Below are positions 3,017 through 18,462 of a stretch of 64,000 nucleotides of DNA, piece after piece. The notes beneath the pieces were generated by a model. The model was given only the letters and a program-made list of their open reading frames with translations, did no database searches and was not told the DNA's origin. Made by a program: the position numbers and the translations under genes. Source of the DNA: Rickettsiales bacterium (GTDB taxonomy: Bacteria > Pseudomonadota > Alphaproteobacteria > Rs-D84); the NCBI GenBank assembly GCA_031288835.1, contig JAITQO010000016.1, positions 8,167 to 72,166 of the forward strand, in the 5' to 3' direction. The stretch's first letter is position 1, and each line of letters starts with the position of its first letter.

Positions 3017-3271
3017 GGTATAAAACCGCCTTCAAAAAATCCCCAACCTTATATATTCAATTTTTTGGCCGAGAAATTAAGTGGATTTGCTTATTTTTGC
3101 AAAAATAATTTTCCCTTAAATGACTTGCTATTAGACGCGAAGTAATTTAAAATTGTCGGGAATCTAGACGGAAATCTAGGTTCGGGGCTGTTGTAAGCCC
3201 AATCACTGCGGTGCGGTTTCGCATCGTTAAAATGATGTGATGGTGCGAATGCCGCGCCGTTATATCCCCGA

Positions 3272-3283
3272 TTATGGTCGGGG
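3272..3283. repeat. left copy of 12-bp direct repeat TTATGGTCGGGG (putative att core)
   Basis: Identical 12-mer at 18383..18394, where it overlaps the 3' end of tRNA-Pro. Locally it forms the dyad CCCCGA-ttatgg-TCGGGG (3266..3283). Confidence 0.6.
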
Positions 3284-3406
3284 AGCCGAAGGTTATATAA
3301 TAGGAGCAATCCGAAAGCCACGGAATCTATCAGTGATTGATTTACAAACTCCCCGACCACCAGTTTTCCGGCTGGTGGTTGAACCATATAACAAGGGAGT
3401 AAAAAA

Positions 3407-3700
3407 ATGGCAGATTTCAAATTTGACGGCAGAGACCTTTATGACCGCAAACGTGTTAGCAACGTTGCCAAAATGGTCGGAAATCATATTAGCGTAAAAG
3501 GACAATATGTTGCCGACATCGATGGAAAATATATCCGTATCAAAGGCCGCAGGGTGGCAGAGTGGGACGGCAAGACCATTCGGATAAACGGACGTAGCGT
3601 TGCCGATGAAAGACAAATCGAAAGAGATATAGATTGTCGGGACGTGGATATGAATACCATCGCCATGTGGGTGGTTATGAACACAATTCTTGCGGAGTAA
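3407..3700 (+). CDS. small repeat protein (beta-hairpin repeats; resembles what I recall as '4-fold beta flower' proteins)
   Basis: SD aagggag 8 nt upstream. Internal repeats: VKGQYVADIDGKYIRIKGRRVAEWDGKTIRINGRSVAD. First gene of a tightly packed operon. Confidence 0.6.
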   Translation: MADFKFDGRDLYDRKRVSNVAKMVGNHISVKGQYVADIDGKYIRIKGRRVAEWDGKTIRINGRSVADERQIERDIDCRDVDMNTIAMWVVMNTILAE

Positions 3701-3703
3701 AAA

Positions 3704-3922
3704 ATGGCATCTTGTATAATATCGTCGGGAATGAAAGTCTGCGCGACCTGCGCGTTTTGGTCTGGCGACCGAAAACTCAACGGATTTTTGCGACGTGTGG
3801 AAGTGCAAAGCGGCAACACGAAAGGCACTTGTCAAAGCGGAGGGCGAAATAGGTTTAATACGAATGCAATGGCTCATTGCCCCGACTATGAAACGCACCC
3901 CGTGTTGATGAAAAGGAAATAA
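3704..3922 (+). CDS. small Cys-rich protein (possible zinc-binding)
   Basis: Starts 3 nt after the previous stop. CxxxxxxxxCxxC...C...C pattern (C4, C13, C16, C43, C59). Confidence 0.5.
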   Translation: MASCIISSGMKVCATCAFWSGDRKLNGFLRRVEVQSGNTKGTCQSGGRNRFNTNAMAHCPDYETHPVLMKRK

Positions 3923-3924
3923 AT

Positions 3925-5178
3925 ATGCAAATAAATATCCGGCGCGGCGCGGACACGATAGGCGGAACGGCGGTAGAACTGACCGCCAACAATGGGGACA
4001 GGATTATCCTTGACCTTGGTCTGCCTTTGGATGCGGAAGAAAATACCGCCGCATTATTGCCGGATATAAAAGGACTGACGGCCAAGATTCCCGACTTGAA
4101 AGGTTTATTCATCTCTCATTCGCACCAAGACCATTTCTCGCTCGGCAAACATATAGACCCTGCGATTCCGATTTATATGGGCAAGGCCGTCGACACAATA
4201 ATCAAAGCAACGGCGGACTATTTGACCAAGGCAAAAGAAGCACTGCCCGATTTGGAACTTCCGGAAATGTTCTCGTTCAAGAATGTCAGACATATCGAGG
4301 GTTTTGTTCCTGTACAAGTCGGCGCGTTCAAGGTCACGCCATATCCTGTCAACCATGCCGCCTATGAATCATTCGCGTTCTTGGTAGAGGCGGATGGCAA
4401 GAGGATTTTCTATACTGGCGACTTCCGCAATCATGGGCGCACGAACAAGCGCACGGAGCATTTAATATCCAATCCGCCATCGGACATCGATGTCTTGCTG
4501 ATGGAGGGGTCAAGCATAGAACGTCTGAATCCGGACGAGCATTTTGAGACGGAAGAGGAATTGGAAAAGCGCATGGCGGAAGTGTTCCGCAATACTCGCG
4601 GTCTGTGCATGGCTCATTCGTCCTCGCAAAATATAGACCGCATTGTCACGATTTATCGCGCCGCCAAATAGACGGGCAGGATTTTGGTCATGGCAAGCTA
4701 TACCGGATTCATTCTGATGAAATTGCAGAATGAAAATCTGCCGAGCTTCACATGGGATGATGTCAAGAAACTGATTGATAAGACTCACGGCAGAAAGCAC
4801 GAAATCATTCCCGAATATATCGAATCCATGACAAGGGTCGGGAACTTCAAATACGTCTATGTCATCGGGCGCGGCGGCCTGCCGTGGCTTGAACGATGCG
4901 GATTGCTTAATCCGGACGCGCACTATATCTATTCCATGTGGTCGGGATACAAAGACAAACTGGCCAAGGAGGTCGTAGATAAAATGCGCGAGCGCGGCGT
5001 TCCCATGACCGACACAAGCGGCCATGCGGACGTTCCGACCTTGCGCCGATTTGTAGAGGCGATAAAGCCGAAAGTACTTGTCCCGATACATACTTTCCAC
5101 CCCGACCAATTCCCCGACTTGTTCGGCGAATATGCCAAGGTGGAACTTCTTAATAACAACGAGCCATGGGAGGTATAA
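3925..5178 (+). pseudogene. beta-CASP-type MBL-fold metallo-hydrolase/nuclease interrupted by one in-frame TAG
   Basis: ORFs 3925..4671 and 4684..5178 are in the same frame, separated only by TAG 4669..4671 (...IYRAAK*TGRILVMASYTG...). The N-part has HxHxDH (ISHSHQDH). The C-part has TSGHADVPTLRRFVEAIKPKVLVPIHT, resembling beta-CASP motifs B/C. Confidence 0.7.
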
Positions 5179-5179
5179 G

Positions 5180-5539
5180 ATGGTTGAAAAATTATTCAAT
5201 GGAAGAACGGAAAAAATAGTTCCCCTTATGGATTTATTCTTATCCGCCCGCGATGAATTAGAAACGGCGGTCGATGAAAGAAAACCTGTGGACGCGCACA
5301 ATACCCTTCTACACGTGGTGGAATTCTTGGGCGAATCCGAAACCCTTTTCAAAGGCGAGTCTTGGGAAAGCATGATGGTCAAGACCCGCGAAGATATCAA
5401 AAAGTGCTTGGATAAATTTTCCGCCGACTATGCCAATAAAGATACCGCAAGTAAAGCCCTTGATTATCTGTTGGGAACGGCGGACGAGTACGTAGAGAAA
5501 TTATACGATGTGAGGCATTCCCTCGAAAAAATTATATAA
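5180..5539 (+). CDS. hypothetical helical protein (119 aa)
   Basis: ATG 5180 lies 1 nt after the MBL stop and is preceded by ggagg. The track ORF 5078 overlaps the upstream gene and is unlikely to be the start. Confidence 0.55.
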   Translation: MVEKLFNGRTEKIVPLMDLFLSARDELETAVDERKPVDAHNTLLHVVEFLGESETLFKGESWESMMVKTREDIKKCLDKFSADYANKDTASKALDYLLGTADEYVEKLYDVRHSLEKII

Positions 5540-5557
5540 ATAAAAAAGGAGAAAACG

Positions 5558-6559
5558 ATGGCGGCCAAGAAGAAAGAAAAAACGACTACACTGCAAAAGC
5601 AAGCGATACCGCGAACCATATCGAACAAGTTCATTTATGACCTTGGCAATCCGGAGGGGATTTTGTATCCGATTTTCGAGTATGCGCGGGATGACGAAGA
5701 GCTGTCGATTCAAATCCGCGATGGTTATGTGAATGTCTATTACCTCGGCGGAAGTATGCTCTGCATTTGGGCAAGCGGCGATAAATACATCGCCACGCAA
5801 GACTCGAACTATCTTAAAGGAACAAAGGTGTCGGCCAAAGAGGAAATTAAAACCTCGGTCGATGCCTCCTCGGTCGCATGGTCGTTCAAACAACGCAAAG
5901 ATGCCATGAAGAAAAAACTCGAAACCAAGAATACGGACGAGAAAATCTTTCAGCAGAAATTGTATAACGCGAACCGCAAAGGCGGGCTTGTGGTCGTGGA
6001 CACCGAAGTCCAAATCCCAGGCGATGTGTGCGAGTTCCTTTACAAGCTAGAACCGAAAGTCCGCCATCCGCGCTTTGACATGGTTGGGCTGTCCAAGATG
6101 GAAAACGGCAAATACCGCCCCGTGCTGATTGAAAATAAATGGGGGACGAAAGCCCTCTATGGCAAGGACGGGGTCGAAGACCATGCAAGGGATATGCTCC
6201 GGTTCGTGCGCTCGCGCTTTTGGGCATATTATATGGACGAATTGGAGGAACAGGCCGCGCAGTTGCAACGGCTTGGGCTGATAGAATTGGACAGATTCTT
6301 CTGCATCGACCGCGAGGAATATCCGGAGATGATGTTCGTCCTTGGGGATTCCAAAATGGAGTTGAAAGAATTGGAAGCCATGCGGGACAAGATGGTGGCC
6401 ACCATCAAAAAGGAAAAGAAAAAGCCGTCATGGATAGGATATAATCTGACCATCAGTGCGCTGACGAAATCGGCCACCAAGGATGATTACGCGATAGGCA
6501 TGAACTCTCGCACCCGCAAACCTTGGCTGACCGCCGCCATATCTGTCGGACAATCATGA
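5558..6559 (+). CDS. PD-(D/E)xK-like nuclease-fold protein (hypothetical)
   Basis: SD aaggag before the ATG. Candidate catalytic pattern ...DTEVQ...RFDMVGLSKMENGKYRPVLIENKWG (D...ExK). Last gene of the plus-strand operon, convergent with vsr. Confidence 0.5.
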   Translation: MAAKKKEKTTTLQKQAIPRTISNKFIYDLGNPEGILYPIFEYARDDEELSIQIRDGYVNVYYLGGSMLCIWASGDKYIATQDSNYLKGTKVSAKEEIKTSVDASSVAWSFKQRKDAMKKKLETKNTDEKIFQQKLYNANRKGGLVVVDTEVQIPGDVCEFLYKLEPKVRHPRFDMVGLSKMENGKYRPVLIENKWGTKALYGKDGVEDHARDMLRFVRSRFWAYYMDELEEQAAQLQRLGLIELDRFFCIDREEYPEMMFVLGDSKMELKELEAMRDKMVATIKKEKKKPSWIGYNLTISALTKSATKDDYAIGMNSRTRKPWLTAAISVGQS

Positions 6560-7021
6560 GCGTTTTATCCCAAGAAAGTCGCACAGCCGAGACAATAACG
6601 ACTGACGGCTGTGCGGAAACAAAGGGCGGAGCTTCTTAAGAAGTTTCGCCCTGTTTTTATTTTTCAGCTCGCATTCCCAAACACGAATCACGCGCCATCC
6701 TTTGGATTGCAGGATTTTCGAAACTTCAAGGTCGCGTTGTTTGTTACGGGCGATTTTGGGAGTCCAATATCTCTTGTGCGTTTTTGGCGTATTAGTCCGG
6801 CAGTCATGGCCGTGCCAAAAACACCCGTCCGCAAAAACCGCGATTTTTAACTTCGGGAACACGAAATCCGGCTTGCCGATTATCTTAAACCCGCGCCGCC
6901 ATCCCTTAATTCCAAGTTCCCGGAACACGGCCGCGAGTTTTAATTCCGTAGACGCATTGTTCTTTGAACGAACGCGACTCATAACCCACGATCGAGTTTC
7001 TTTGTCCAAGATATCAGCCAT
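6554..7021 (-). CDS. vsr: very-short-patch repair endonuclease
   Basis: TRSWVMSRVRSKNNASTE...GKPDFVFPKLKIAVFADGCFWHGHDC...YWTPKIARNKQRD...GWRVIRVWECEL matches the Vsr signature. SD aagga 7 nt upstream. Confidence 0.9.
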   Translation of the reverse strand: MADILDKETRSWVMSRVRSKNNASTELKLAAVFRELGIKGWRRGFKIIGKPDFVFPKLKIAVFADGCFWHGHDCRTNTPKTHKRYWTPKIARNKQRDLEVSKILQSKGWRVIRVWECELKNKNRAKLLKKLRPLFPHSRQSLLSRLCDFLGIKRS

Positions 7022-7047
7022 GGCGAATCCTTAAATCCAAGAGCATT

Positions 7048-9654
7048 TTACTTATTTTCTATCTCGATATCGTACTTTTTCTCTCTTTGTAAAAACGCAT
7101 CTTTAGAACCTTCCAACATTAAAATATCTTCCCTATGTGATAAGTTTTCAATAGAAGTCACCGATATATCGGTTTGAGTTTTTTCGGTAGAGTTTGGCTT
7201 TAACACAATCACCAGGTCGCTGTCTCCATTAACAACGATATTCGCATTATGTGTTGCAAATATTAGCTGGCGTTGTTTTTTGATAGACTTGATTATATTT
7301 ACCAAGTCTTTTGCTATCATCGGTTGGTCTAGGTGGGTTTCAGGTTCATCAATGATTAACGGTTTTGTCCCAAAAATCAATAGAACTAATAAGATTGCTG
7401 TCGCTCTTTGCCCAAAAGATAGCTTATCAAGCGACTTATCTTGGTATAAGATATCGTAGTTTATATAATCAGAATTATAAAAATACTTTAATAAATTCAA
7501 ATCATATATATCTTGATTTTCATTTTGTTGAAAATATTGCAATAGAATACCGTAAGTGTAATTTTTAGATTTAGTATTATCCAACGTTCTGGTATAAATT
7601 CCGTCAGCCGTAAGAACAATCGCAGATTCAAAATCAACATGAGCCCTAGTATCGATATTTTTAGAAATAAACTTGGCATAAAATTCCTTTTTCGCAACAT
7701 CGGTATTGTACGAATACTTGAAATTTAGGTCGCTAATTTCACTTTTGCTTTGCAGTTTCTTTATGTTTTGTACGGTAATGGCAAATATTTGCGTGAGCGC
7801 ATTTGTATAATCGGCATAAGCTAATTTTATCAAACGCGATAATTCTGTTGTACTTTTTATGCCTGATTTTAAACTTTTATTATTATTTTCGATTGTTGCA
7901 ATTTCTGCTGTAGTCTCTCTAAGCTCTTCTTCTGCATTGATAGAATTTTGAATTAGCTCTTCCGACAAACTGCGTTTTTCTAGATATGTCTTAAGGTCGG
8001 CCTTGTGTTTTGTTAACCCTAACAATAAATTCTTCTCTGTTTGTGATACGTCAGGCAATGGATTATCAGTTTTTATCGTTTGCAATGCTAGCACTATTTT
8101 CTTATACGATTCGCTATAACACGTATCGCCAACAACATCAATTGACAATGGAATCTTAACATTTCTGACTTCATTGATAATTTGGATATATGCGTCTTTT
8201 ACCTGCTTTATCTTTCCAAGCTCCTCAACCGCATTTTTTATGTTTTTTGATATTGATTGGTATTCTTCAGTACTCAAACCACTTATAATAGTTTCGTCTT
8301 TTTTCTTTATGTCATTTAAGGTTTTTAGTTTGACATTATTTTCTTTAATGGTGTTCAGATTTGATATAGCTACGTCTACTTCTTTCTGCAGTTTGCACAA
8401 TTCATCGCGAGGTTTGGTTAAAACATCAATAACCTTCGATAGCGGCATTGTTGGTTCTGGTTGATAGTCTTTTTTCTGCCAATACTCCTCTAATTTTTTT
8501 ATTATTTTATCATTTAACTTTGCGGGATCTCTATAAGAGCTTTCTATTTCATTTTGCCCAAAATATTCATAAATAGTATTTGGAATAGATACGCTGTTAT
8601 CTATATCTAACTCATTCATCCATGACAACTTATCGATATCTGAGATGTTTTCCTTCGCCAGACATTGAAGCAATAAGCTTTTTCCAGTACCTCGCCCTCC
8701 AATTATGCAGTTTAGACCAGGATTAAACGATATTTTCTGATTTACTCCTGAAAAACAAAATGGAATTTGTGAAATTGTTAAGCCGGCCTTGAACTTCAAA
8801 TCTATTTCTGTTATGTAGTCTAGAGCATCTATCGGAGATTCTATCGCAAGGCGAATTCTATTAACGTTGGGTAATAAAGCTTGGCGCAAAGTTTCAAATG
8901 CCGCATCTCCTTTTATCCAAGTAAAACTGCGCCCTATTTTATTACTGGCGTTCTCGGTACTATAATTGTGCGCGTCTGAGAAATGCAAATATGGTCGTTT
9001 ATACTGAGATTCGCATATCTTGTGATTGGATAACGCATTCTCAAGCGTTGGGCTCGCATTAGATAAAAATTTTATTTCTTCTAATAATGCAGACGGTATT
9101 TCACTAGGATTGCCTGTTAGATAATCAATGGTTGTAATATCGGCGAATTCGTTCTTACCATAAAATAAAATGATTTTTTTATCTAGCTTTTGTTTCTTTA
9201 ATTCATTACAAATATCGTCTTTTTTGTAAACCAATAAATGTTTATCCGTATAATTTGCATCATCCTGGCTAGGACTACTTGGACATGGGCGCAGCGCATT
9301 TATAAATCTGTCGATATCATTTTCGCATCCTTGGTCAAAGATGATATGCATATTTATATTTTTTCCGCCATCATTCGTCCACTCAATGCGATATTCAATT
9401 GCCGGTAGTATGAGCGCGATATTTTGCAACCTACCCTGTTTTTTGAATTCCAGGACTTTTTTGTATCCGTCCAATATTACATAATCACATATACCGATGA
9501 TGCTTCCGTCCGGATAGTTATTTTTATTTTCTAAATCCAGTATAAAAGATTCCCATTTGGTCTCGTTAGAATCTCCTGTAAAATTGTTATGACTGGAAAC
9601 CGGCGTATGTATATGCAAATCCCACTTCCGCCATTCTGAACCTCTATACGACAT
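7048..9654 (-). CDS. PHP-domain phosphoesterase fused to SbcC/Rad50-like ABC ATPase (Ppl/TrlF-like, from memory)
   Basis: N-terminus WRKWDLHIHTP (PHP HxH). Walker A GGRGTGKS. About 400 aa of Lys/Glu/Leu-rich, probably coiled-coil sequence. Signature/Walker B LSFGQRATAILLVLL...PLIIDEPETHLD, then ATHNANIVV. ATG 9654 has SD aaggtg; the track start GTG 9663 is an alternative. Codon usage is very AT-rich compared with neighbours. Confidence 0.75.
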   Translation of the reverse strand: MSYRGSEWRKWDLHIHTPVSSHNNFTGDSNETKWESFILDLENKNNYPDGSIIGICDYVILDGYKKVLEFKKQGRLQNIALILPAIEYRIEWTNDGGKNINMHIIFDQGCENDIDRFINALRPCPSSPSQDDANYTDKHLLVYKKDDICNELKKQKLDKKIILFYGKNEFADITTIDYLTGNPSEIPSALLEEIKFLSNASPTLENALSNHKICESQYKRPYLHFSDAHNYSTENASNKIGRSFTWIKGDAAFETLRQALLPNVNRIRLAIESPIDALDYITEIDLKFKAGLTISQIPFCFSGVNQKISFNPGLNCIIGGRGTGKSLLLQCLAKENISDIDKLSWMNELDIDNSVSIPNTIYEYFGQNEIESSYRDPAKLNDKIIKKLEEYWQKKDYQPEPTMPLSKVIDVLTKPRDELCKLQKEVDVAISNLNTIKENNVKLKTLNDIKKKDETIISGLSTEEYQSISKNIKNAVEELGKIKQVKDAYIQIINEVRNVKIPLSIDVVGDTCYSESYKKIVLALQTIKTDNPLPDVSQTEKNLLLGLTKHKADLKTYLEKRSLSEELIQNSINAEEELRETTAEIATIENNNKSLKSGIKSTTELSRLIKLAYADYTNALTQIFAITVQNIKKLQSKSEISDLNFKYSYNTDVAKKEFYAKFISKNIDTRAHVDFESAIVLTADGIYTRTLDNTKSKNYTYGILLQYFQQNENQDIYDLNLLKYFYNSDYINYDILYQDKSLDKLSFGQRATAILLVLLIFGTKPLIIDEPETHLDQPMIAKDLVNIIKSIKKQRQLIFATHNANIVVNGDSDLVIVLKPNSTEKTQTDISVTSIENLSHREDILMLEGSKDAFLQREKKYDIEIENK

Positions 9655-9669
9655 TCTGTACACCTTAAC

Positions 9670-10659
9670 CTATTTTTTCGCAAACAGCGTTTCGGATGGC
9701 TTCCAGTCTTTGGCCATCTCGTCGGCCTTTTCAAGCCACTTGCGAATCCTGTCTTTCGGAGAAACAGACTCGCTCCAATACTCTACAAACAATTCGTCAT
9801 CCATGACCAACGCGGCCTTTTTCATATCGTCTTCCAACAACTGCAAAGCCCGTGCTATGTAGATTCCGCCTTCGTCGTCATTGAACGGATTGGCGACGCT
9901 TCCGGCGGAAAACAAATCTCGCGCCTGATGGCACAGAACGCCGTGATACGTAAGCAGATAGAGAACCGCGTCATCGTATTTGTTTTTTGCGCCGCTAGGT
10001 TTGACCACGCTTGGGCAAAGCAAAACCGCTTCCGCTCGAAGACGAGTTTTTTCTTCCATCGGCAGATGCGTGTAAAGCCGCACCTGTATCGGCAAGGTAT
10101 GCTCGTCATTCTCTTTGTCTTCCAGCCACCACAGACGCTCGCCTTGCTGCAATCTTCCGCGAGCATAGCCGCGAATATGGCGCATCTTGTCTTCCATCGA
10201 CATTTTCCTAAAATCGTCGTACTTAACGCCCATCAGCTCGAACAGCGGATGCTCGGTGGACAATTCGACCTCGAACCTTGGAACATGGGACGTGCGGACA
10301 TGGCAGACGCTTTTTTCATAATCTCCCCACCGAACCTCCGGCTTACCGCCCATCTTTCCAAAAACCAAATAAACCTTTTTGACGCTTTCGATGCGATTGG
10401 TTTCAAGAACGCTGTTGGCCACGCTCCGCCATGCGTCGTTCAGAGTAAATTTTACTTCGACGCCGAAATCGCCCATATCCACATCGGGAAAAGCTTGCGG
10501 ATGCGGATTGAAGTCCACAGAATAGCCGGACAAATCGCGCAGGACTTCTCTGACCCTGTTCTCAAAAACAGCGGGCGCATTGAATCGCCCTTCTTTTGCC
10601 TCCGCTGTCAGCCGCTCGCACGCCCTGCCGAGCAGCTGTTCGAATTCTTCCTGCTTCAT
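9670..10659 (-). CDS. type II restriction endonuclease candidate (PD-(D/E)xK)
   Basis: FPDVDMGDFGVEVKF is a PD...ExK motif. ATGA 4-nt overlap with the upstream C5-methyltransferase gene. Confidence 0.65.
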   Translation of the reverse strand: MKQEEFEQLLGRACERLTAEAKEGRFNAPAVFENRVREVLRDLSGYSVDFNPHPQAFPDVDMGDFGVEVKFTLNDAWRSVANSVLETNRIESVKKVYLVFGKMGGKPEVRWGDYEKSVCHVRTSHVPRFEVELSTEHPLFELMGVKYDDFRKMSMEDKMRHIRGYARGRLQQGERLWWLEDKENDEHTLPIQVRLYTHLPMEEKTRLRAEAVLLCPSVVKPSGAKNKYDDAVLYLLTYHGVLCHQARDLFSAGSVANPFNDDEGGIYIARALQLLEDDMKKAALVMDDELFVEYWSESVSPKDRIRKWLEKADEMAKDWKPSETLFAKK

Positions 10660-11594
10660 GTTTCATCCCCTGTTAGTATAGATTCTACCGATTGCGCCAC
10701 GTGCCAAGCCAAGACCGGAGGCACGGCGTTTCCTATCTGACGCTCCGTTTCCCTCAGCTTTGACGCGAACAGAAAGGAATCTGGGAAAGATTGTATCCTT
10801 GCGGCTTCGCGCATAGAAATTCTGCGCGGCAAAGAATAATGAAACTGGATATTGCCATGGCACTCCGCGCGCATCGTGTATCCAGGCCTATCGGCTTTCA
10901 GCTTGCGATTGCCTTGCTCGGTGGTTTTATTGGCCGCGCTCCATATATGGCTGAAAGCTTCATTCTGCGGCATATCCTCAAGGTCTGCTAATGCATTCTT
11001 GGCCGTAACCGGCTTTGCGCCTAGCGGCCTTGGCGGCGTGAATTTCGGAATATCTTTTCTTGTTCCGACAATCATAACTCTTTCCCGCGTCTGCGGCACG
11101 CCGTAGTCTGCGGCATGATAAAGGTTATAGGTTACGTCATACCCTAATGCGCGAAAATCTTTCAGAATCTTTTCCAAATCTTTTTCATGACACTTCATCA
11201 GCAAGCTTTTGACATTTTCTGCGATAAAAACTTTCGGTTTCAATTTGCGGACGATTTCAACCATGTACGAATACAGGCCGCTTCTCGCGCCCGCTATGCC
11301 CGCCATTTTCCCATTTATGGATATGTCTTGGCATGGGAACCCACCGATAACGACATCAGCGTATTCAGGCAGTTTATCCATAATCTGCGTTATATCCCCC
11401 TCAACTATATGGCCGCTTATGTTGCGGCGATAGGTATCGCACGCGGCGCGGTTGATTTCGTTCGCCCAAATAACCTCGAAGCGATTCTTTTTGTAATGCT
11501 TGCCCAAGAAATCAAAACCGCCGACAAAGCCCAAGTCCATGCCGCCGCATCCGGAAAAAAGCGATAAAATTGTTATTGGTTTCTTGTCGGTCAT
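10656..11594 (-). CDS. dcm: DNA (cytosine-5)-methyltransferase
   Basis: Motifs LSLFSGCGGMDLGF (I), GGFPCQDIS (IV), AENV (VI), QTRERV (VIII), GNAVPPVLA (X). ATG 11594 is preceded by ggag; the track start 11615 is less likely. Confidence 0.9.
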   Translation of the reverse strand: MTDKKPITILSLFSGCGGMDLGFVGGFDFLGKHYKKNRFEVIWANEINRAACDTYRRNISGHIVEGDITQIMDKLPEYADVVIGGFPCQDISINGKMAGIAGARSGLYSYMVEIVRKLKPKVFIAENVKSLLMKCHEKDLEKILKDFRALGYDVTYNLYHAADYGVPQTRERVMIVGTRKDIPKFTPPRPLGAKPVTAKNALADLEDMPQNEAFSHIWSAANKTTEQGNRKLKADRPGYTMRAECHGNIQFHYSLPRRISMREAARIQSFPDSFLFASKLRETERQIGNAVPPVLAWHVAQSVESILTGDET

Positions 11595-11652
11595 ACGCGC
11601 TCCTCTACAATACATATGTTATATGCTTTGTTGTTTTTTTTCAAGTCCTAAA

Positions 11653-11973
11653 TCAGCATTCGTCGGTCAACATAACCGATAAAATTCTGCGGTTTTTTGA
11701 TGAATTGTCCGGATTTGCGCTGATTCTCTGAGATTGCGCCTCTAGGCAGTCGATTTGGAATAAAATCGTTCTGCCGGACAGATTAAAGAATCCAAAATCA
11801 TGCTCATCGCTAGGATTGCCCCCGAAGTCATCAAACTCCATTATCTTTTTAATGGCCGCTATCTGCGTTCGCGGCGACAGAGCGCGAACTCCTTGCGTGA
11901 AAAATACCTGCCCATCGGACAGAGTGCGCCGGAATTCATCATTAAGCTTTCTTATTTTTAGCACGTCGCGCAT
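11653..11973 (-). CDS. DUF3768-like protein
   Basis: IRKLNDEFRRT...SDEHDFGFF...RILSVMLTDEC resembles DUF3768. ATG 11973 has SD aaagga; the track start is a TTG at 11997. Confidence 0.65.
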   Translation of the reverse strand: MRDVLKIRKLNDEFRRTLSDGQVFFTQGVRALSPRTQIAAIKKIMEFDDFGGNPSDEHDFGFFNLSGRTILFQIDCLEAQSQRISANPDNSSKNRRILSVMLTDEC

Positions 11974-12000
11974 ATTAAATTCCTTTCGTTGTTGCAATGA

Positions 12001-12040
12001 ATGCTTACGATTCGGCTTAAGTCAAGTCTATTAGTACGGA
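12001..12040 (-). promoter_or_regulatory. conserved island promoter/operator element, copy A
   Basis: 33/40 ungapped identity with 14661..14700. Contains TTGACT flanked by ACTAAT...(A)ATCGT. Ends 27 nt upstream of the DUF3768 ATG. Confidence 0.55.
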
Positions 12041-12200
12041 CATTCATCTTTAAGCTTGTCATCGTGTGTCGCATTGAGTCGTTTTGCGACCATTGCTGGT
12101 AGTGGCAACAGAAAAAATCCCTATTATATTAACTGCAACAAGCCGACTGACGCTATTGCGTTGGTCATAAATTAACAATGGCAATCAAGGAGAAAATACC

Positions 12201-12575
12201 ATGCCAAAAAATTCAATAAAAGAAAAAAATGAAAGGAAAATCCGCTCGGACAGAATGCATTCCACAATAAAGAAACCTCAAGGGCTCATTACTAACGAAC
12301 ACGCATGGAATGGCAACAAGTTGTTGCGTGAGCTCCCGCCGTATACGATAAAGCAGTCCGTAAAAAAGGACTGCCAACTAGCTTTTGTAAAGGCGATACA
12401 GCTTGAAGCTCAAAAAATTTTTGAAGAGGTGAAACAGGCGGCCTCGCTTTTGGGCAAGAACCAAACTCTAGAGATTTGGGGTCTGATGATAAATATCGCC
12501 ACTTGTTGCGATGAGATAAAACGGGACGTAGATGCCGTTCAAAGCATCACGCCTTGGAATGAAATCGGCGGATAA
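12201..12575 (+). CDS. hypothetical protein
   Basis: ORF with SD aaggag 8 nt upstream; no recognisable motif. Confidence 0.5.
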   Translation: MPKNSIKEKNERKIRSDRMHSTIKKPQGLITNEHAWNGNKLLRELPPYTIKQSVKKDCQLAFVKAIQLEAQKIFEEVKQAASLLGKNQTLEIWGLMINIATCCDEIKRDVDAVQSITPWNEIGG

Positions 12576-12631
12576 GAACAACAACACTACCGCCGTGCCA
12601 ACGGCGGTAGGTACAAACAAAGGAAAAAATT

Positions 12632-13054
12632 ATGGAAAATTCAGAATATAAGGTAGGCAAAAATCGCCCACCGATAGAGACACGCTTCAAGCCAGGGGTT
12701 TGTCCGAACCCCTTGGGGCGCAAGAAAGGGACGCTTTCTTTGACCACCATCTTGCAAAAGATTCTCGACCAGAAAATCACCCTGTCCGAGAATGGCAACA
12801 AGGTGCGAGTTAGTAAAAGGCAGGCCGTTACCATGAGATTGGTGGCCGAGGCACTTGCGGGCAAACCGCGAGCCATTGCTCTTTTATTGCCCATCATAAA
12901 TACCGCCGATGAAAAACGCGAGGCGCAGGAAGCGGTCACAAAATCCATGTCAAAAACAGACCAAGAAATACCTAGCCGAACACAAGGGAGGAAACAATGT
13001 TTAAGAAAATTAAGGGGCTTAATGCCAAGCAACAGCTGTACGTTAATTTTATGA
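12632..13054 (+). CDS. DUF5681-like protein (phage small-terminase-associated family)
   Basis: KVGKNRPPIETRFKPGVCPNPLGRKKG matches the DUF5681 N-terminal signature as I recall it. Lies directly upstream of the TerL fragment. Confidence 0.6.
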   Translation: MENSEYKVGKNRPPIETRFKPGVCPNPLGRKKGTLSLTTILQKILDQKITLSENGNKVRVSKRQAVTMRLVAEALAGKPRAIALLLPIINTADEKREAQEAVTKSMSKTDQEIPSRTQGRKQCLRKLRGLMPSNSCTLIL

Positions 13055-13208
13055 ATGTTCAGTCTCGCAAGCGCGAGGAGGAAGAGGAGAAGGAAGAAAT
13101 AGTTTCGGCGGGCTTTCCAGAATCTTTAGCAGAACGTCGTCGCCGCTTGCTTAGAGGCGACAAGTTCGCATCGCGCACGACGTTCCGAAAAATAAAACGG
13201 AGCGCGTC

Positions 13209-13430
13209 ATGAATAACGTTGTCTCGCCTCAAGATTTCCTCTCGGCCATCTTCCGTGACGACCCTGTCAGTTTTGTCCGCAAGGTATTTGCCGAAGTATC
13301 GGGAGCTTCCACATATCAACACAACTGGCACATCGAACATATTATCGCGCACCTGCTAGATATGCGTGATGGCCACTACAATCGTGAAGTGATAAACATC
13401 CCTCCCCGCGCACTCAAATCCATGCCCCAA
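13209..13430 (+). pseudogene. terminase large-subunit N-terminal fragment
   Basis: ...HNWHIEHIIAHLLDMRDGHYNREVINIPPRALKSM resembles the TerL N-terminus up to the PPRxxKS ATPase loop. Beyond about 13430 the ORF runs antisense to minus-strand genes and loses similarity. ORF 12997..13212 may be a frameshifted upstream piece. Confidence 0.5.
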
Positions 13431-13562
13431 GATATAGAACACGTTGCCCTCCGGACTGGCGAGGTCTATGACCACGCCAGTCGGGACACGCGCCCCATCT
13501 ATTATTTCCTGCTGTTTCTTCGCGGCGGCGAGTTTTCTTTCAATAGAGTATATGTTTTCCAT
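13356..13562 (-). CDS. small hypothetical phage-like protein
   Basis: 68-aa ORF. IDLASPEGNVFYILG resembles a small phage protein family. Its 3' end overlaps the TerL remnant. Confidence 0.3.
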   Translation of the reverse strand: MENIYSIERKLAAAKKQQEIIDGARVPTGVVIDLASPEGNVFYILGHGFECAGRDVYHFTIVVAITHI

Positions 13563-13574
13563 AGTTTTTCCTTT

Positions 13575-14192
13575 TTATCCACGGGCGTAGTAGTAGCTCC
13601 ACCACTGCCTCATTTCCTCGATGGTCAGCTTGGCGATGTTATGCAACACCTTGCCGCTTGTGATTTGGCCTTGCATATCAACCAAGCGGTCTGCCAAGTG
13701 GCGGCCAATGCGATTGTCCAAGAACCGCATAATCTCGAAATCCTTTTTCTCCGGATACAGGGACTTGATTTTTCCGACCATCTCCAACCAAATCTTTTTG
13801 GTCACGGCCTCGGAGAATCCGCCTGCCGACCTAATCGTTCCGTAGAATCCCCATTCGGGATTCTGAGTGTTCACGACCGCCGTCCGTTTTCCGGTAATTT
13901 CGATTCCGACATAGCGGGCGTAGTCATAGCCCTCCGGATTTATCAGAAGCGATGGGCGACCTTTCGATGTGACGCGAATCCATTTGTCATCGCCGCCCTT
14001 GCGCGAGATGAATGAGAAGGTGTCGAAGAAGTTATCGATGAGCGCGTCATAGTTCTTTTTATCAAGGTCGATGGTTTCGACCACCACGACCAATTCTATG
14101 TCGTCAATCGAACGCGCCTTGGTTTGTTTTTCAAGGTCGTCCATGTCGATTGGCTTGCGGATGATTATTGCTTGTGCTTTTTCTTTTGGCAT
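13575..14192 (-). CDS. hypothetical protein
   Basis: 205-aa ORF, separated by 2 nt from the upstream DUF2924 gene; no recognised motif. Confidence 0.5.
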   Translation of the reverse strand: MPKEKAQAIIIRKPIDMDDLEKQTKARSIDDIELVVVVETIDLDKKNYDALIDNFFDTFSFISRKGGDDKWIRVTSKGRPSLLINPEGYDYARYVGIEITGKRTAVVNTQNPEWGFYGTIRSAGGFSEAVTKKIWLEMVGKIKSLYPEKKDFEIMRFLDNRIGRHLADRLVDMQGQITSGKVLHNIAKLTIEEMRQWWSYYYARG

Positions 14193-14194
14193 TT

Positions 14195-14632
14195 TTATGC
14201 TCCTTTGTTGTTGAACCCGAAGAAGTCATAGCCCGACACCTTGTGACCGCAGATGAGCGTTGCGATGGCGGACAGACTCTTGTAGGTTTGGTTTTCATAG
14301 TTGAACTCGTCGGGCGCGGTCACATGAACCATGTAATCCTTGCCCTTGAATTTTTTCAGCAGTTGCGTCCCTGGCTTCACGTGGTACTTGGTCTTGTGCG
14401 ACCGCTCTATGCTCTCGTCCGGATTCTCGGAACAGGCATTTAGCTTCGTGACGTGCTTCTGCTCGATGACGAGGCCGCCGCGCTCGCATTGAATCTTGAA
14501 CCACAGCGGTTTGAACTGCGGACGACCGGACGCGAAGTATCGCGCCCACAATTCCTGCAACTGGGATGGAGACAGCGACTTTAATTTCGCCGCCGATTCC
14601 GGCAGGTTTTCAATGCATTTTTTGACTTTCAT
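14195..14632 (-). CDS. DUF2924-like protein
   Basis: ...SPSQLQELWARYF...VKPGTQLLKKFKGKDYMVHV...YKSLSAIATLICGHKVSGYDFFGF matches the DUF2924 pattern. SD aaggag. Confidence 0.7.
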   Translation of the reverse strand: MKVKKCIENLPESAAKLKSLSPSQLQELWARYFASGRPQFKPLWFKIQCERGGLVIEQKHVTKLNACSENPDESIERSHKTKYHVKPGTQLLKKFKGKDYMVHVTAPDEFNYENQTYKSLSAIATLICGHKVSGYDFFGFNNKGA

Positions 14633-14660
14633 AATCGACTCCTTGGTTACACCACAATCA

Positions 14661-14700
14661 ATGCTTACTAATCGGGCTAAGTCAAATCTATTAGTGCGAA
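14661..14700 (-). promoter_or_regulatory. conserved island promoter/operator element, copy B
   Basis: ACTAATagatTTGACTTagcccgATTAGTAAGCAT (minus-strand reading). Ends 28 nt upstream of the DUF2924 ATG. Confidence 0.55.
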
Positions 14701-14721
14701 AAGCGCAGAAAGCCCCTTTCG

Positions 14722-16038
14722 TTATCCCTCGCGCTTGGCGCGATGTTCCGCCAACAGCTCGTCATACTTCCTGCCGCTTGCCGCATGGATGACATCGCCG
14801 CCGAAGCATTGCTGATAGCGGCGGATTATCGTGTCCACGTACAATCCCTCGTATTCTATGCCGTAAAAAACGCGCTTGGCCTTTTCGCAGGCGATAAGGC
14901 ACGAACCACTTCCGGCAAAACTATCAAGAACAATATCGCCGCGATTGCTGACATCTAAAATGGCCGAGCGCAGGAGTTTTTCCGGCTTGCTAGTCGGGTG
15001 CATTTTGAGCGCGGCTTTATTCTTGCCAAAGACGTTCACGCCATAGCAAGACCAAACGTTGCTACGCACGCGCCCTGTCGAACCGAGGAGTACATTATTG
15101 ACATGGCTTTCTTTGCCGTTCTTGAAGACGTGAATTTCTTCGTACTGACTGCGCCACAGCGAACCCGTTCCAGGGACGATTTTGTCCCATATGCATTTGT
15201 TGACGTAGCCGGAGAACACGGCGCGTCCCGCCGAGAGGATATGCCACCCGTGCCGCCAATCCATGAAATTCAGGTGCAACGAGCCATCGGTGGAATACTT
15301 GGCGCACAGGCGGAAATTTGACGTGAGGAAATCGACGAATTCTCCATCGTTCATCTCGCCGGACGCAAAGGCGAATTCCTTGTGCTTTGTTTCGCCTGCG
15401 CCGCATACATGGCCTTGCACCTTGACGTTGAACGGCGGGTCTTGCACGCACAGGTTCGCTTTCTTGTCGCCGAATAGGATTTGGAACGATTCCTCTTTCA
15501 AACTGTCGCCATGATAGAGGCGATGGTCGTTGGGAAAAAGCCAAAGGTCGCCCATGACGGACACAACATCGTTTTCTTCTATCAGCGGCGCGGAGTTCAG
15601 TTTCGGGTCTTCCTCCTTCTGCTCTTGTATAAGGTCAAGCTTCACGGAATCATATCCGCTGAGCTCGATTTCGATGTCAATATCCGCGCAAGCCAATTCC
15701 AGTTCTTCAAGCTCGATCTTGAGCAACTGCTCGTCCGTTTTTCCTAACTCCCCAAGGCGGTTGCTTGCCAGTGCCTGCAGTCGCGCCTTTACATCGCCGA
15801 GGTCTGCATACATGACAGGGATGCTTTCCAATTCCAAAAGCTTGGCCGCCTCCCATCGGCAATGGCCGGATATTATTTCGCCGTCCGGCTTTGCGAGGAT
15901 TGGCTCGTTAAATCCCAATTGGCTGATGATTTCACTTGTTTTCTGAATCTGCCCTTTTGAATGCTTTTTTACGTTTCGCAGAGATGGGCGGAGAGTCGAT
16001 GGGTTCACATATTTAATTTCTAAATCGTTTGTTTTCAT
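14722..16038 (-). CDS. ParB-like N-terminal domain fused to beta-class N6A/N4C DNA methyltransferase (orphan)
   Basis: ParB-like N-terminus (...NPSTLRPSLRNVKKHSKGQI...PILAKPDGEIISGHCRWEAA). Motif IV VQDPPFNV comes before motif I VLDSFAGSGS, which is the beta-class order. Confidence 0.8.
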   Translation of the reverse strand: MKTNDLEIKYVNPSTLRPSLRNVKKHSKGQIQKTSEIISQLGFNEPILAKPDGEIISGHCRWEAAKLLELESIPVMYADLGDVKARLQALASNRLGELGKTDEQLLKIELEELELACADIDIEIELSGYDSVKLDLIQEQKEEDPKLNSAPLIEENDVVSVMGDLWLFPNDHRLYHGDSLKEESFQILFGDKKANLCVQDPPFNVKVQGHVCGAGETKHKEFAFASGEMNDGEFVDFLTSNFRLCAKYSTDGSLHLNFMDWRHGWHILSAGRAVFSGYVNKCIWDKIVPGTGSLWRSQYEEIHVFKNGKESHVNNVLLGSTGRVRSNVWSCYGVNVFGKNKAALKMHPTSKPEKLLRSAILDVSNRGDIVLDSFAGSGSCLIACEKAKRVFYGIEYEGLYVDTIIRRYQQCFGGDVIHAASGRKYDELLAEHRAKREG

Positions 16039-16131
16039 AATAACACCTTTTTGTTTTTATTAGGTGTAATATAATTCTAGGGAAATTTATCCGCCACTGC
16101 CGATGATGGTCGTAATGCGACATTAAGAGAC

Positions 16132-16155
16132 AAAAACGCCGGTCTTGCGACCGGC
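16132..16155 (-). terminator. Rho-independent terminator after HTH gene
   Basis: Minus-strand reading GCCGGTC-gcaa-GACCGGC followed by GTTTTTG. Confidence 0.6.
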
Positions 16156-16161
16156 GAATTG

Positions 16162-16395
16162 TTATGCGACTCTGCAAAAAGAGTCCGACAAGTACTTATT
16201 CACGGCTTCAACCGGATAAAGGATATTTTTTCCGCGTTTATAAAACGCGATACCCTTTCTGGCATTCCGCCATCTCATAAGCGTGCGCGGGTCACAACAT
16301 AAAATTGTGCTGACTTCTTTAGGGGAAAGCTCTCCCTCAAAGACCACTTGTTTCGGAGTTCTATCTGTCGCTGGCTGAAGTTTGTATCTTGCCAT
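16162..16395 (-). CDS. helix-turn-helix DNA-binding protein (excisionase/AlpA-like)
   Basis: 77 aa; ...EVSTILCCDPRTLMRWRNARKGIAFYKRGKNILYPVEAVNKYL. Divergent from the recombinase gene. Confidence 0.6.
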   Translation of the reverse strand: MARYKLQPATDRTPKQVVFEGELSPKEVSTILCCDPRTLMRWRNARKGIAFYKRGKNILYPVEAVNKYLSDSFCRVA

Positions 16396-16474
16396 CGGAG
16401 ATACCCCCTTGATGAAAATGGGTTAACTCCTGGGAAACGCCTAAAACCAGTATTGTTTGGTTTTTGTGCTGTCT

Positions 16475-16492
16475 GAGTCCTGTACAGGACTC
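16475..16492. promoter_or_regulatory. perfect 18-bp palindrome GAGTCCTGTACAGGACTC (candidate operator)
   Basis: Located in the divergent HTH/recombinase intergenic region. Confidence 0.5.
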
Positions 16493-16597
16493 CGCGACGT
16501 TTACCCCATTAATATAGCGCGATTTTTTTAATTTTCAAGCCCCCCTGTATTTCCGTCTAAAAATCTGCATTTGCACCCCTAAAACAAAGTTATTTTT

Positions 16598-16637
16598 TAG
16601 TCGCTAATTAATTTGACTTCCTGCGATTAGTAAGGCC
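16598..16637 (+). promoter_or_regulatory. conserved island promoter/operator element, copy C
   Basis: gCTAATtaatTTGACTTcctgCGATTAGTAAGg; 27/40 ungapped identity to copy B. GTAAG ends 30 nt upstream of the recombinase ATG, the same offset as copies A and B. Confidence 0.5.
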
Positions 16638-16664
16638 AAATGGACGTAACAAAGAGGTAGAAAC

Positions 16665-18153
16665 ATGAACAAAACCAAATGCGCGATATACGTCCGAAAG
16701 TCCAGTGAGCGCGGACTCGACCAAGAATTCAACAGCTTGGACAATCAAGAACTCGCGTGCAAGAGCTATATCACGTCACAGCAGTTCCAAGGATGGCGGC
16801 ATATTAAAACATACGCCGATGGAGGCATCTCCGGCGGCACGATGGCGCGGCCTGGATTGCAGGAACTACTGACCGACATCCGCGATGGGAAAGCTGACCT
16901 TGAATATGCTCCTATCGTTCGCAGAGTTCGAGCGCGAGATCGCGTCCGAGCGCGTACGCGATAAAATGAGAGCGACCAAATCCAAAGGATTGTGGGTCGG
17001 CGGCGTGCCTCCGCTCGGCTACGATATAGAATACGGAAAACTCGTTCCGAATGAAACCGAAATCCCCATCGTGCTTGACGTGTTCAATACATATTTGGAA
17101 AGCACCGGACTAATGGAATGCCGCGACAAGATTATCGCCAAAGGCATCCATCGCAAGGAGTGGACAACTAAAAAAGGTGAAATAAAAGGCGGATTGGAAT
17201 TTATCTGCAACAGCGTGGAACGGATTCTGAAAAACCAAATCTACCTTGGCAAGCTTCCCAACAAATCCACCAACGAGGTGTTCGATGGTCAGCACGAAGC
17301 CATCGTGCCGCAGGAGCTGTTCGATGCCGTTCAGAAAAAACTCAGCGACAATAACAATCATAAGGACAGACCATACTGCCGTGGGCTACCGCTCCTGCAC
17401 CAAAAGGTATTCACCGCCGATGGGGTTCAGTTCAAGAATCAGAAATGCAATAAAGACCAACTCCGCCAGTACCGCTACTACAAATGCGGCAAGGTATCGC
17501 TCCCTGCCGGAGACGTTGAAACCATCGTCTGCGACCAAGTCAAAAAGTTCCTGGACTCTGATATGTTCTGCCTAACCAAAGACAAGCGCGGAGAGTTGAA
17601 AAAATTGGAATACAGCGAGCCGCTAGTAAAACAGATAGTCGACAGAGTCGTGTACGCAAACCATAAACTGACCATCTTCCTCAATGTGGCTGACATGGAT
17701 GGCCTCGCGCCGTTCAAGAAAGACGGATACATCAACCAAGCGAATGAGTTCATGGACAGCTATCTGACCGAGGATGGCAAGCAGGCTGTGCTTGAAAAAG
17801 AGATATTCATATCAAGCCGGACTTGCATCAACCGCCTGCACGAGGGCGGCGAAGTCAACGTGCTGACCAAGACCGAAACCGCGACCATGCTCATCAAGGC
17901 ATTGTCCTACGGGTGGAAATACAAAAAGGATTATGAGTCCGGCACAGGTATCAAAGCCCTTGCCGAGCAGGAACAGCGCAATCAGCGAACCATATACAAA
18001 TATCTGAACCTTGCATACCTGTCGCCGAGGATTACCAACGACATCATGAACAACGAAATCCCCACAGGCATGAACCTGCAGACCCTGTTCAAGATTGCGT
18101 CTGCCTGCGATGACTTCTCGGTGCAGGAAAAGTTCTTCTACGCCGCCGCATAA
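16665..18153 (+). pseudogene. large serine recombinase with internal out-of-frame deletion
   Basis: ORF 16665.. (CAIYVRKSSERGLDQEFNSLDNQ...YADGGISGG...RPGLQELLTDIRDGK) switches frame at gATGGGAAAg (16885..16892) into ORF 16885.. (GKLTLNMLLSFAEFEREIASERVRDK...). The roughly 45-aa segment normally carrying the DRLSR-type motif is absent. Confidence 0.75.
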
Positions 18154-18176
18154 GCCCCCCCCATACCATAGTCAAC

Positions 18177-18200
18177 CCGCCGGAAACGGCGGTGATTTTT
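18177..18200 (+). terminator. Rho-independent terminator after recombinase gene
   Basis: CCGCCG-gaaa-CGGCGG followed by tgaTTTTT. Confidence 0.6.
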
Positions 18201-18348
18201 CGCGCCGTCCGGCGCGTGCGCTGGCTTTATTGACTCGGTGGAAATGGGCATTGTATAGAAAGCCGGATATTTGGCGGCAAAAAGGCACTTTCGAACCCCA
18301 TACCTAAGTCAATAGATGTGTGAAGCCCGCAGATAGCGGGCTTCACAC

Positions 18349-18375
18349 GAGAAAAGTCGCCGTGACTGGCGACTT
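18349..18375 (-). terminator. hairpin plus T-rich tract downstream of tRNA-Pro
   Basis: Minus-strand reading AAGTCGCC-agtcac-GGCGACTT-TTCTC. A second 13-bp-stem hairpin lies at 18318..18348. Confidence 0.4.
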
Positions 18376-18382
18376 CCTAATC

Positions 18383-18394
18383 TTATGGTCGGGG
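18383..18394. repeat. right copy of 12-bp direct repeat TTATGGTCGGGG
   Basis: Covers the last 9 nt of tRNA-Pro (CCCCG-A-CCA on the minus strand) plus 3 nt of trailer. Confidence 0.6.
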
Positions 18395-18462
18395 CGAGAG
18401 GGTTCGAACCTCCGACATCTTGCTCCCAAAGCAAGCACTCTACCAGGCTGAGCTACGCCCCG
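18386..18462 (-). tRNA. tRNA-Pro (anticodon UGG)
   Basis: Reverse complement CGGGGCGTAGCTCAGCCTGGTAGAGTGCTTGCTTTGGGAGCAAG...GGTTCGAACCCTCTCGCCCCGACCA folds as a cloverleaf. Anticodon loop TTTGGGA; CCA is encoded. Confidence 0.9.

Follow-up and report, generated by a model that had tools for sequence, protein, structure and literature searches.

Why should the gene for a large nuclease-ATPase lie between the endonuclease gene and the repair gene of a bacterial restriction-modification (R-M) operon? The question is raised by a stretch of DNA from a Rickettsiales bacterium (contig JAITQO010000016.1; the whole 64,000 nucleotides (nt) analysed are called the window here, and coordinates count from its first letter), in which four genes follow one another on the minus strand: a C5 cytosine DNA methyltransferase, the Dcm-type M subunit of a type II R-M system (10656..11594); a type II restriction endonuclease, R, probably of the PD-(D/E)xK class (9670..10659); an 868-residue TrlF-family protein joining a PHP nuclease to an SMC/Rad50-like ATP-binding cassette (ABC) ATPase (7048..9654); and a 155-residue Vsr very-short-patch-repair endonuclease, V (6554..7021). 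An earlier note on this DNA had called the order unusual, and indeed we found M-R-ATPase-V nowhere else, whether among 51 related R-M loci or 80 loci holding relatives of the ATPase. The same note had left a choice between a composite defence unit and the nested insertion of a stand-alone system. Base composition, an abrupt end of homology at the insertion point, nine uninterrupted M-R-V loci and the survey of ATPase relatives all favour insertion, while conservation lends the composite no support here. Overall, we consider it likely that a foreign, stand-alone PHP-ATPase defence gene was recently inserted between the R and vsr genes of an otherwise ordinary M-R-V cassette, at a hotspot for cargo, and that its product acts independently of its neighbours.

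The four open reading frames (ORFs) are all present where the earlier note had placed them, and its account of their junctions can be read directly in the sequence. The stop codon of M and the start codon of R overlap as ATGA. The ATPase gene starts with an ATG at 9654, 15 nt past the TAG stop of R, and the spacer between them, GTTAAGGTGTACAGA (9655..9669, minus strand), holds its own Shine-Dalgarno sequence, AAGGTG, 6 nt upstream of the ATG. The vsr gene starts at 7021, 26 nt past the ATPase stop, and its Shine-Dalgarno sequence, AAGGA, lies in the spacer AATGCTCTTGGATTTAAGGATTCGCC (7022..7047, minus strand). The four genes are probably co-transcribed from a promoter upstream of M, because the gaps on either side of the ATPase gene measure only 15 and 26 nt, every gene is preceded by a Shine-Dalgarno sequence of its own, and no convincing terminator was found between any of the four. 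A promoter scan of the cassette gave only as many matches as shuffled or random sequence, and is hence uninformative on internal promoters.

Composition marks the ATPase gene as foreign to this operon. Its GC content is 0.34, about 4 standard deviations below the window mean (0.509, standard deviation 0.043), and it is the lowest-GC 2.6-kb segment in the window. At third codon positions the GC content (GC3) is 0.325, against 0.53 for M, 0.61 for R, 0.55 for vsr and 0.63 for the convergent ORF downstream; across all of its neighbours, GC3 spans 0.53-0.66. The transitions fall in the 100-nt bins that hold the two ends of the gene, with the 15-nt spacer at the upstream edge of the drop and the 26-nt spacer at the downstream edge.

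Homology breaks at the same place. When five independent M-R relatives were aligned by blastn, their similarity to the window ended at 9682-9691, virtually at the stop codon of R. To see what follows R elsewhere, we scanned metagenomes with an alignment of the restriction endonuclease and recovered 80 loci, 51 of them with at least 450 nt of sequence downstream of R. The plain M-R-V arrangement, with a same-strand vsr at -20 to +33 nt from R, is found in nine of the 51, as compared with the 2.65 kb that separates R from vsr in the window, and none of the 51 carries a TrlF-like gene after R. Other genes do occupy the position. In three of the 51 loci (L132, L180, L182) the gene after R encodes an OLD-family ATPase-TOPRIM protein, and in the closest relatives (L002-L005, 84% identical), which have an element backbone in common with the window, R is followed by a PDC-S06 (AAA_13) ATPase (~9100-13500), and this in turn by bSEFIR in L002 and L004, by two integrase-family genes in L003 and by the end of the contig in L005. 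The slot is empty in L006-L009, L100 and L101/L102. Taken together, these comparisons indicate that, in this R-M family, ATPase-nuclease genes have repeatedly landed immediately 3' of R. In one further locus (L187), the slot after R holds a caspase-like peptidase.

The reciprocal survey, of 80 genomic loci carrying members of the ATPase family and their neighbours within 6 kb, found no homologue of the window Dcm, restriction endonuclease or Vsr in any locus. The earlier note had taken a complete lack of co-occurrence between ATPase homologues and R-M or vsr genes as a sign of chance juxtaposition, and that expectation is borne out only in part, since methylases of other kinds do recur beside them. 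The immediate neighbours of TrlF-family genes are heterogeneous, and the commonest category is R-M components of other classes. A DNA methylase is the immediate neighbour in at least 10 of 63 loci (at least 16%), mostly co-oriented and at gaps of -47 to +50 nt; this fraction is a lower bound with no matched control family, and says nothing on enrichment relative to other defence genes. Loci of this kind are L032, L042, L072, L073, L084, L086 and L087, together with L023, L029 and L045, and their methylases include long N6_N4, HsdM-like and MmeI-like IIG types, arranged for example as N6_N4 methyltransferase-TrlF-TrlG (L032), methyltransferase-TrlF-Fic (L086) and SNF2-TrlF-MmeI-like IIG (L073). 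Such pairs may be R-M-like systems in which the PHP-ATPase serves as the nuclease. In a neighbour-joining tree, the methylase-linked members fall in other clades than the window protein, whose own clade has variable partners (DUF2130, HEPN-RES or none).

A second recurrent partner is DUF2130. In several genomes unrelated to one another, Helicobacter pylori among them, its gene lies 1-43 nt to one side or the other of a TrlF-family gene (L010 1011-4857; L013 7001-10950; L026 1326-5262; L034; L068 5947-9949). DUF2130-TrlF is thus a candidate two-gene system, and seemingly an undescribed one.

The earlier description of the 868-residue protein as PHP plus ABC-ATPase is upheld by motifs, alignment and structure prediction alike. 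Residues 7-864 align to positions 1-943 of the 944-position NCBIfam model NF045780 (TrlF family AAA-like ATPase), with 400.5 bits against a cutoff of 350, and one identical copy aside, the nearest homologue is 41% identical. In an alignment of 20 TrlF-family sequences, the PHP residues D12, H14, H16, E87, H103, D227 and H229 are invariant, as are the Walker A motif, Q-loop, SFGQR signature, Walker B DEPE and H-loop, and every one is intact in the window protein. The AlphaFold model (pLDDT 82, pTM 0.68) has an ABC head interrupted by long coiled-coil helices, matched in Foldseek by JetC, MukB, Rad50, cohesin, AriA and SMC, and an N-terminal domain matched by the PHP nucleases RNase AM and the PHP domain of Pol III alpha. 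The label 'SbcC-like', also used in the earlier note, holds for the fold class, that of SMC/Rad50 heads, and no further: the protein has no CxxC zinc hook, so that it resembles SbcC in fold class only, and with no SbcD/Mre11-like gene nearby an SbcC/Rad50 identity is ruled out.

Several other assignments were tried and rejected. The Ppl models score far too low for family membership (NF042955, 94.8 bits against a cutoff of 1000; PADLOC PDLC02208, 85.5 bits, mainly over residues 722-827). There is no match to PrrC, and relative to PrrC and RloC the domain order is reversed, with PHP at the N-terminus and ABC at the C-terminus, and the CxxC hook is missing. Neither TOPRIM nor OLD matches the protein, which eliminates an OLD/Gabija-type identity. 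Matches to mad3 of MADS are weak and confined to the ABC region, and the apparent mad2 and mad5 neighbours are homologues of ordinary R-M components (MADS paper).

The genes on either side of the insertion are conventional. For M, the earlier claim of a C5-methyltransferase with all canonical motifs is borne out both by profiles (PF00145, E=9e-74; TIGR00675, 221 bits; PADLOC MTase_II, 325 bits) and by direct reading of FSGCGG, GFPCQ, ENV, QTRER, REAARIQSFPD and GNAVPP (motifs I, IV, VI, VIII, IX and X) in the translation; M is 312 residues long from the ATG at 11594, within a longer ORF that begins at 11615. R matches the PADLOC type II endonuclease model REase_II PDLC03508 over its full length (E=9e-141, residues 1-327), and P58-D59...E68-V69-K70 is invariant in 28 homologues. 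The PD-(D/E)xK class, for which R was named a candidate earlier, is probable, but the fold is weakly supported: the top fold matches are to the PD-(D/E)xK enzymes Hjc and HincII, at non-significant E values of 0.3-0.5, and a sequence search of the PDB with R found no relative. Many relatives of R are 79-84% identical, R is immediately preceded by a Dcm gene in 53 of the 79 loci examined in the endonuclease survey and also in L002-L009 and L100-L102, and the M-R pair is kept in every close relative looked up. Annotated E. coli genomes, phages and plasmids yielded no useful near-identical match, the sole hit being a Pelobacter plasmid with 72% identity over 630 bp of the endonuclease gene.

Site counts in the window bear on what such an enzyme might recognize. 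GGNCC does not occur within the mobile element that carries the cassette (0 sites against 38 expected, 3284-18382) and is depleted in its flanks (54 against 156, ratio 0.35), making it a candidate recognition site of a resident C5 R-M system, possibly this one. GCWGC (3 against 24 expected) and CCSGG (1 against 12) are depleted inside the element only, and GTAC outside it only. GATC is nearly missing from the entire window (1-64000), with 14 sites against about 247 expected from a maximal-order Markov model and a ratio close to 0.05 within the element as well as beyond it, which suggests that a GATC-specific restriction system in the host exerts strong selection.

Vsr was correctly named as the fourth gene: it scores 120 bits on TIGR00632, above the NCBIfam cutoff of 97.85, matches PF03852 (E=4e-23) and contains the motif ADGCFWHGH. 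Its GC3 is akin to those of M and R. With the Vsr proteins encoded in the nine M-R-V relatives, the window Vsr shares 32-52% identity, and its nearest relative, at 72%, adjoins an unrelated Dcm and then an OLD/HEC-04-like ATPase; vsr is thus a mobile accessory in its own right. At its 3' end, the vsr ORF runs on into a C-terminal extension of about 30 residues that reads through a hairpin with a 13-bp stem (6623-6652). The hairpin has the look of a terminator for a convergent 333-residue ORF (5558-6559) of unknown function, and the 3' ends of this ORF and of vsr overlap by 6 nt. The nearest Vsr relative (P0242) is likewise 155 residues long.

The general course of events, and the way in which the locus might work, can be outlined as follows. 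A conventional type II M-R-Vsr module would ride as cargo on an element of about 15 kb integrated at tRNA-Pro, and a foreign, stand-alone defence gene would have been inserted precisely into its R-vsr junction. M would methylate cytosine-5 at the R site, possibly GGNCC; R would cut unmethylated invading DNA; and Vsr would repair the T:G mismatches left by deamination of 5-methylcytosine. The ATPase would act alone, as a second and mechanistically independent layer. Its best mechanistic analogue is E. coli Ppl, the only member of this architecture class with a known exonuclease activity: a single-gene 3'-5' PHP exonuclease on single-stranded DNA that is inhibited by bound nucleoside triphosphates and activated by nucleotide depletion together with 3'-OH ends (2026 review PMC12904381). 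By analogy, the window protein probably acts independently, as Ppl does, and in an infected cell it would attack DNA ends as a PHP exonuclease gated by nucleotides.

At the same time, several observations weigh against this reading. The closest M-R relatives, at 79-84% identity, have no vsr, and the order of events (vsr first, then the ATPase gene) is inferred from distant relatives in which R is 65-72% and Vsr 32-52% identical. Insertion scars, which the earlier note had named as a second sign of chance juxtaposition, did not materialize: the best repeat flanking the ATPase gene is 9 nt long and would arise by chance with a probability of about 0.1, and no mobility gene lies alongside. The sequence TTAAGG does occur in both flanking spacers, and is too short to tell a target duplication from two Shine-Dalgarno sites. 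The operonic association of at least 16% of TrlF-family members with DNA methylases is a hint that some branches of the family may be linked to DNA modification. DUF2130 adjoins the genes of the nearest ATPase relatives and is missing in the window. Finally, the autonomy of the ATPase is assumed from Ppl, even though the protein reaches only 95 of the 1000 bits required at the Ppl cutoff.

These points must be set against the alternatives. Perhaps the PHP-ATPase cooperates with the R-M system as a functional composite, a possibility that we regard as unlikely. It might process the ends made by the restriction endonuclease, whose cuts would supply 3'-OH ends for Ppl-like sensing, in keeping with the reported need of Ppl for such ends (PMC12904381); or it might be a back-up like PrrC, firing when phage anti-restriction inhibits R-M, for which PrrC and RloC, ABC-ATPase effectors linked to R-M loci, set precedents (PMC2610378, PMC3458546). 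Its operon-like embedding, with short gaps and no internal terminator, would suit either variant, as would the presence of three different ABC-ATPase nuclease families in the slot after R across this R-M family, and the tight linkage of TrlF-family genes to methylases or R-M genes of other classes. Adjacency of this kind is weak evidence, however, because, as is general in defence islands, most defence genes neighbour R-M genes more often than genes of any other kind. The pairing itself is unique to the window, absent from all 51 R-M relatives and all 80 ATPase relatives; M-R pairs of the same kind work without the ATPase in many genomes; the methylase-linked TrlF proteins belong to clades other than that of the window protein; and the foreign GC content shows little or no co-evolution of the ATPase with the R-M genes. 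More broadly, TrlF-family PHP-SMC-like ATPases could constitute a class of 'restriction-linked' effectors that use DNA ends or modification set by a neighbouring methylase or restriction endonuclease. We think this generalization quite unlikely. If it were true, the type II endonuclease here would make the 3'-OH ends that license the PHP exonuclease, a single transcript would encode a two-tier, cut-then-shred defence along with the repair (by Vsr) of its own mutations, and the methyltransferase-TrlF pairs seen elsewhere would be an undescribed R-M-like system with the PHP-ATPase as restriction component.

The ATPase gene might instead be an orphaned passenger, captured without its usual partner (DUF2130 in its own clade, TrlG or TrlR in Photorhabdus) and now inactive or decaying. 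DUF2130 lies 11-18 nt from both the sister gene (41% identical, L010) and the gene for P0007 (34%, L013-L017, with the exception of L016), and is likewise paired with TrlF-family genes in H. pylori (L026, L034) and L068; Photorhabdus TrlF is encoded in a trlR-trlF-trlG operon whose phenotype comes from trlG mutations only (bioRxiv 10.1101/2020.06.02.129163). No DUF2130 or TrlG-like gene was found in the 64-kb window (for TrlG, in phmmer and tblastn searches seeded with a TrlG-like sequence of L032), and a frameshifted serine recombinase suggests that the element itself may be decaying. We nonetheless judge an inactive orphan improbable: the ORF is full length and retains every PHP and ABC catalytic residue, most TrlF-family members have neither DUF2130 nor TrlG as a neighbour, the P0007 protein is found without DUF2130 in L016, and Ppl works as a single gene (PMC12904381). 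Still less can be said for a role in repair rather than defence, in which the ATPase-nuclease would serve Vsr very-short-patch repair, for instance by resection from the Vsr nick. The gene does adjoin vsr in the same orientation, and in some polymerases a PHP domain serves as the proofreading exonuclease (work cited in bioRxiv 10.1101/2025.09.30.679545), but Vsr is found in none of the 80 ATPase-family loci, nine M-R-V relatives manage without the ATPase, and the neighbours of TrlF-family genes are defence genes, not repair genes, all of which makes this role very improbable. Lastly, a low-GC gene could have been stitched into the cassette by metagenome misassembly, as the abrupt GC change and the source, a metagenome-assembled genome to judge from the names, might lead one to suspect. 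This is exceedingly improbable. A Logan contig (L001) is identical to the window over 15,174 bp (3259-18432) and contains the ATPase junctions on both sides, evidence against a chimera, with the proviso that the two assemblies may share reads and are not fully independent; moreover, the junctions fall in short spacers that leave the stops, Shine-Dalgarno sites and starts of three genes intact, an outcome very unlikely for a chimera.

The locus can also be set beside known systems, and its unusual gene order is best explained by insertion at a cargo hotspot. As in other M-R-V type II cassettes, a Dcm-type M is translationally coupled to R and a co-oriented vsr lies downstream; what differs is the 2.6-kb foreign gene between R and vsr. 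The TrlF name comes from the Photorhabdus temperature-restriction locus (TRL), trlR-trlF-trlG, where the mutations that confer temperature tolerance were all in trlG and none in trlF, so that TrlF was given no function (bioRxiv 10.1101/2020.06.02.129163). The window protein shares with Photorhabdus TrlF the above-cutoff, full-length family match and the architecture of an ATPase with PHP (annotated as 'histidinol phosphatase'). TRL, however, lies at the chromosomal polA-dsbA site, whereas the window gene lies in a type II R-M operon with R and vsr as neighbours, and without a TrlG (AlbA_2/HATPase_c_4) or TrlR partner. With Ppl, it has in common a PHP nuclease and an ABC-type NTPase in one polypeptide of about 870-900 residues, in a defence neighbourhood; the match between them is weak and partial, mainly to the C-terminal ATPase, and they are separate families of one architecture class.

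ABC-ATPase genes embedded in or near R-M operons are likewise familiar from PrrC and RloC (PMC2610378, PMC3458546), the latter also with a Rad50-like coiled coil. There, however, the nuclease is a C-terminal anticodon-nuclease domain and the host R-M system is type I, whereas here the nuclease is an N-terminal PHP domain without a zinc hook, the R-M system is type II, and nothing points to silencing of the ATPase by R-M. A further parallel in organization is with the defence hotspots of integrative elements, which combine a conserved backbone with a variable slot, filled in this family by a TrlF-like gene, by PDC-S06 and bSEFIR, by an OLD-family gene or by nothing; the usual slots lie between transcription units, and this one lies inside an operon, from R to vsr. 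In this context, the locus brings together parts of kinds already known (a type II R-M system with Vsr, a TrlF/Ppl-class protein and a mobile-element hotspot) and is no new composite system. Its value is as a clear natural before-and-after example of operon-internal cargo capture and defence-gene stacking, with the uninterrupted state kept in relatives and the inserted single-gene system probably borrowing the R-M operon promoter. TrlF, little studied and known only from the temperature-restriction phenotype, gains a concrete defence-island context, and the recurrent DUF2130-TrlF and methyltransferase-TrlF pairs provide two leads on the family.

The element that carries the cassette spans about 15.1 kb (3272..18394) between 12-nt direct repeats, TTATGGTCGGGG, at 3272-3283 and 18383-18394. 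The repeat is the 3' end of a tRNA-Pro (TGG) gene (18386..18462, minus strand; ARAGORN), the integration target, duplicated at 3272-3283, and the L001 contig ends within about 40 nt of the repeats. The backbone (serine recombinase, ParB-methyltransferase, DUF5681, DUF2924 and DUF3768) is common to L002-L005 and L101/L102. The large serine recombinase gene (16665-18153, plus strand) is split, probably by a frameshift, into a 99-residue resolvase-domain ORF (16665-16964) and an overlapping 422-residue ORF (16885-18153), the latter aligning with positions 130-543 of an unbroken 543-residue homologue in L002, and as a consequence the element may no longer excise. A metallo-beta-lactamase-fold gene (3925-5178, plus strand) also appears split, into ORFs 12 nt apart: an RNase J-like Lactamase_B_2 part (3925-4671), which has a faint anti-Pycsar Apyc1 match in precomputed annotation, and an RMMBL part (4684-5178). 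In human-gut contigs (L006-L009), an 81%-identical M-R pair adjoins a type II CRISPR-Cas9 locus, and in L006 an 85-bp stretch before the M-R pair (6790-6874) is 93% identical to the tRNA-Pro region of the window, which suggests that the R-M module may also travel with a tRNA-Pro-targeting context.

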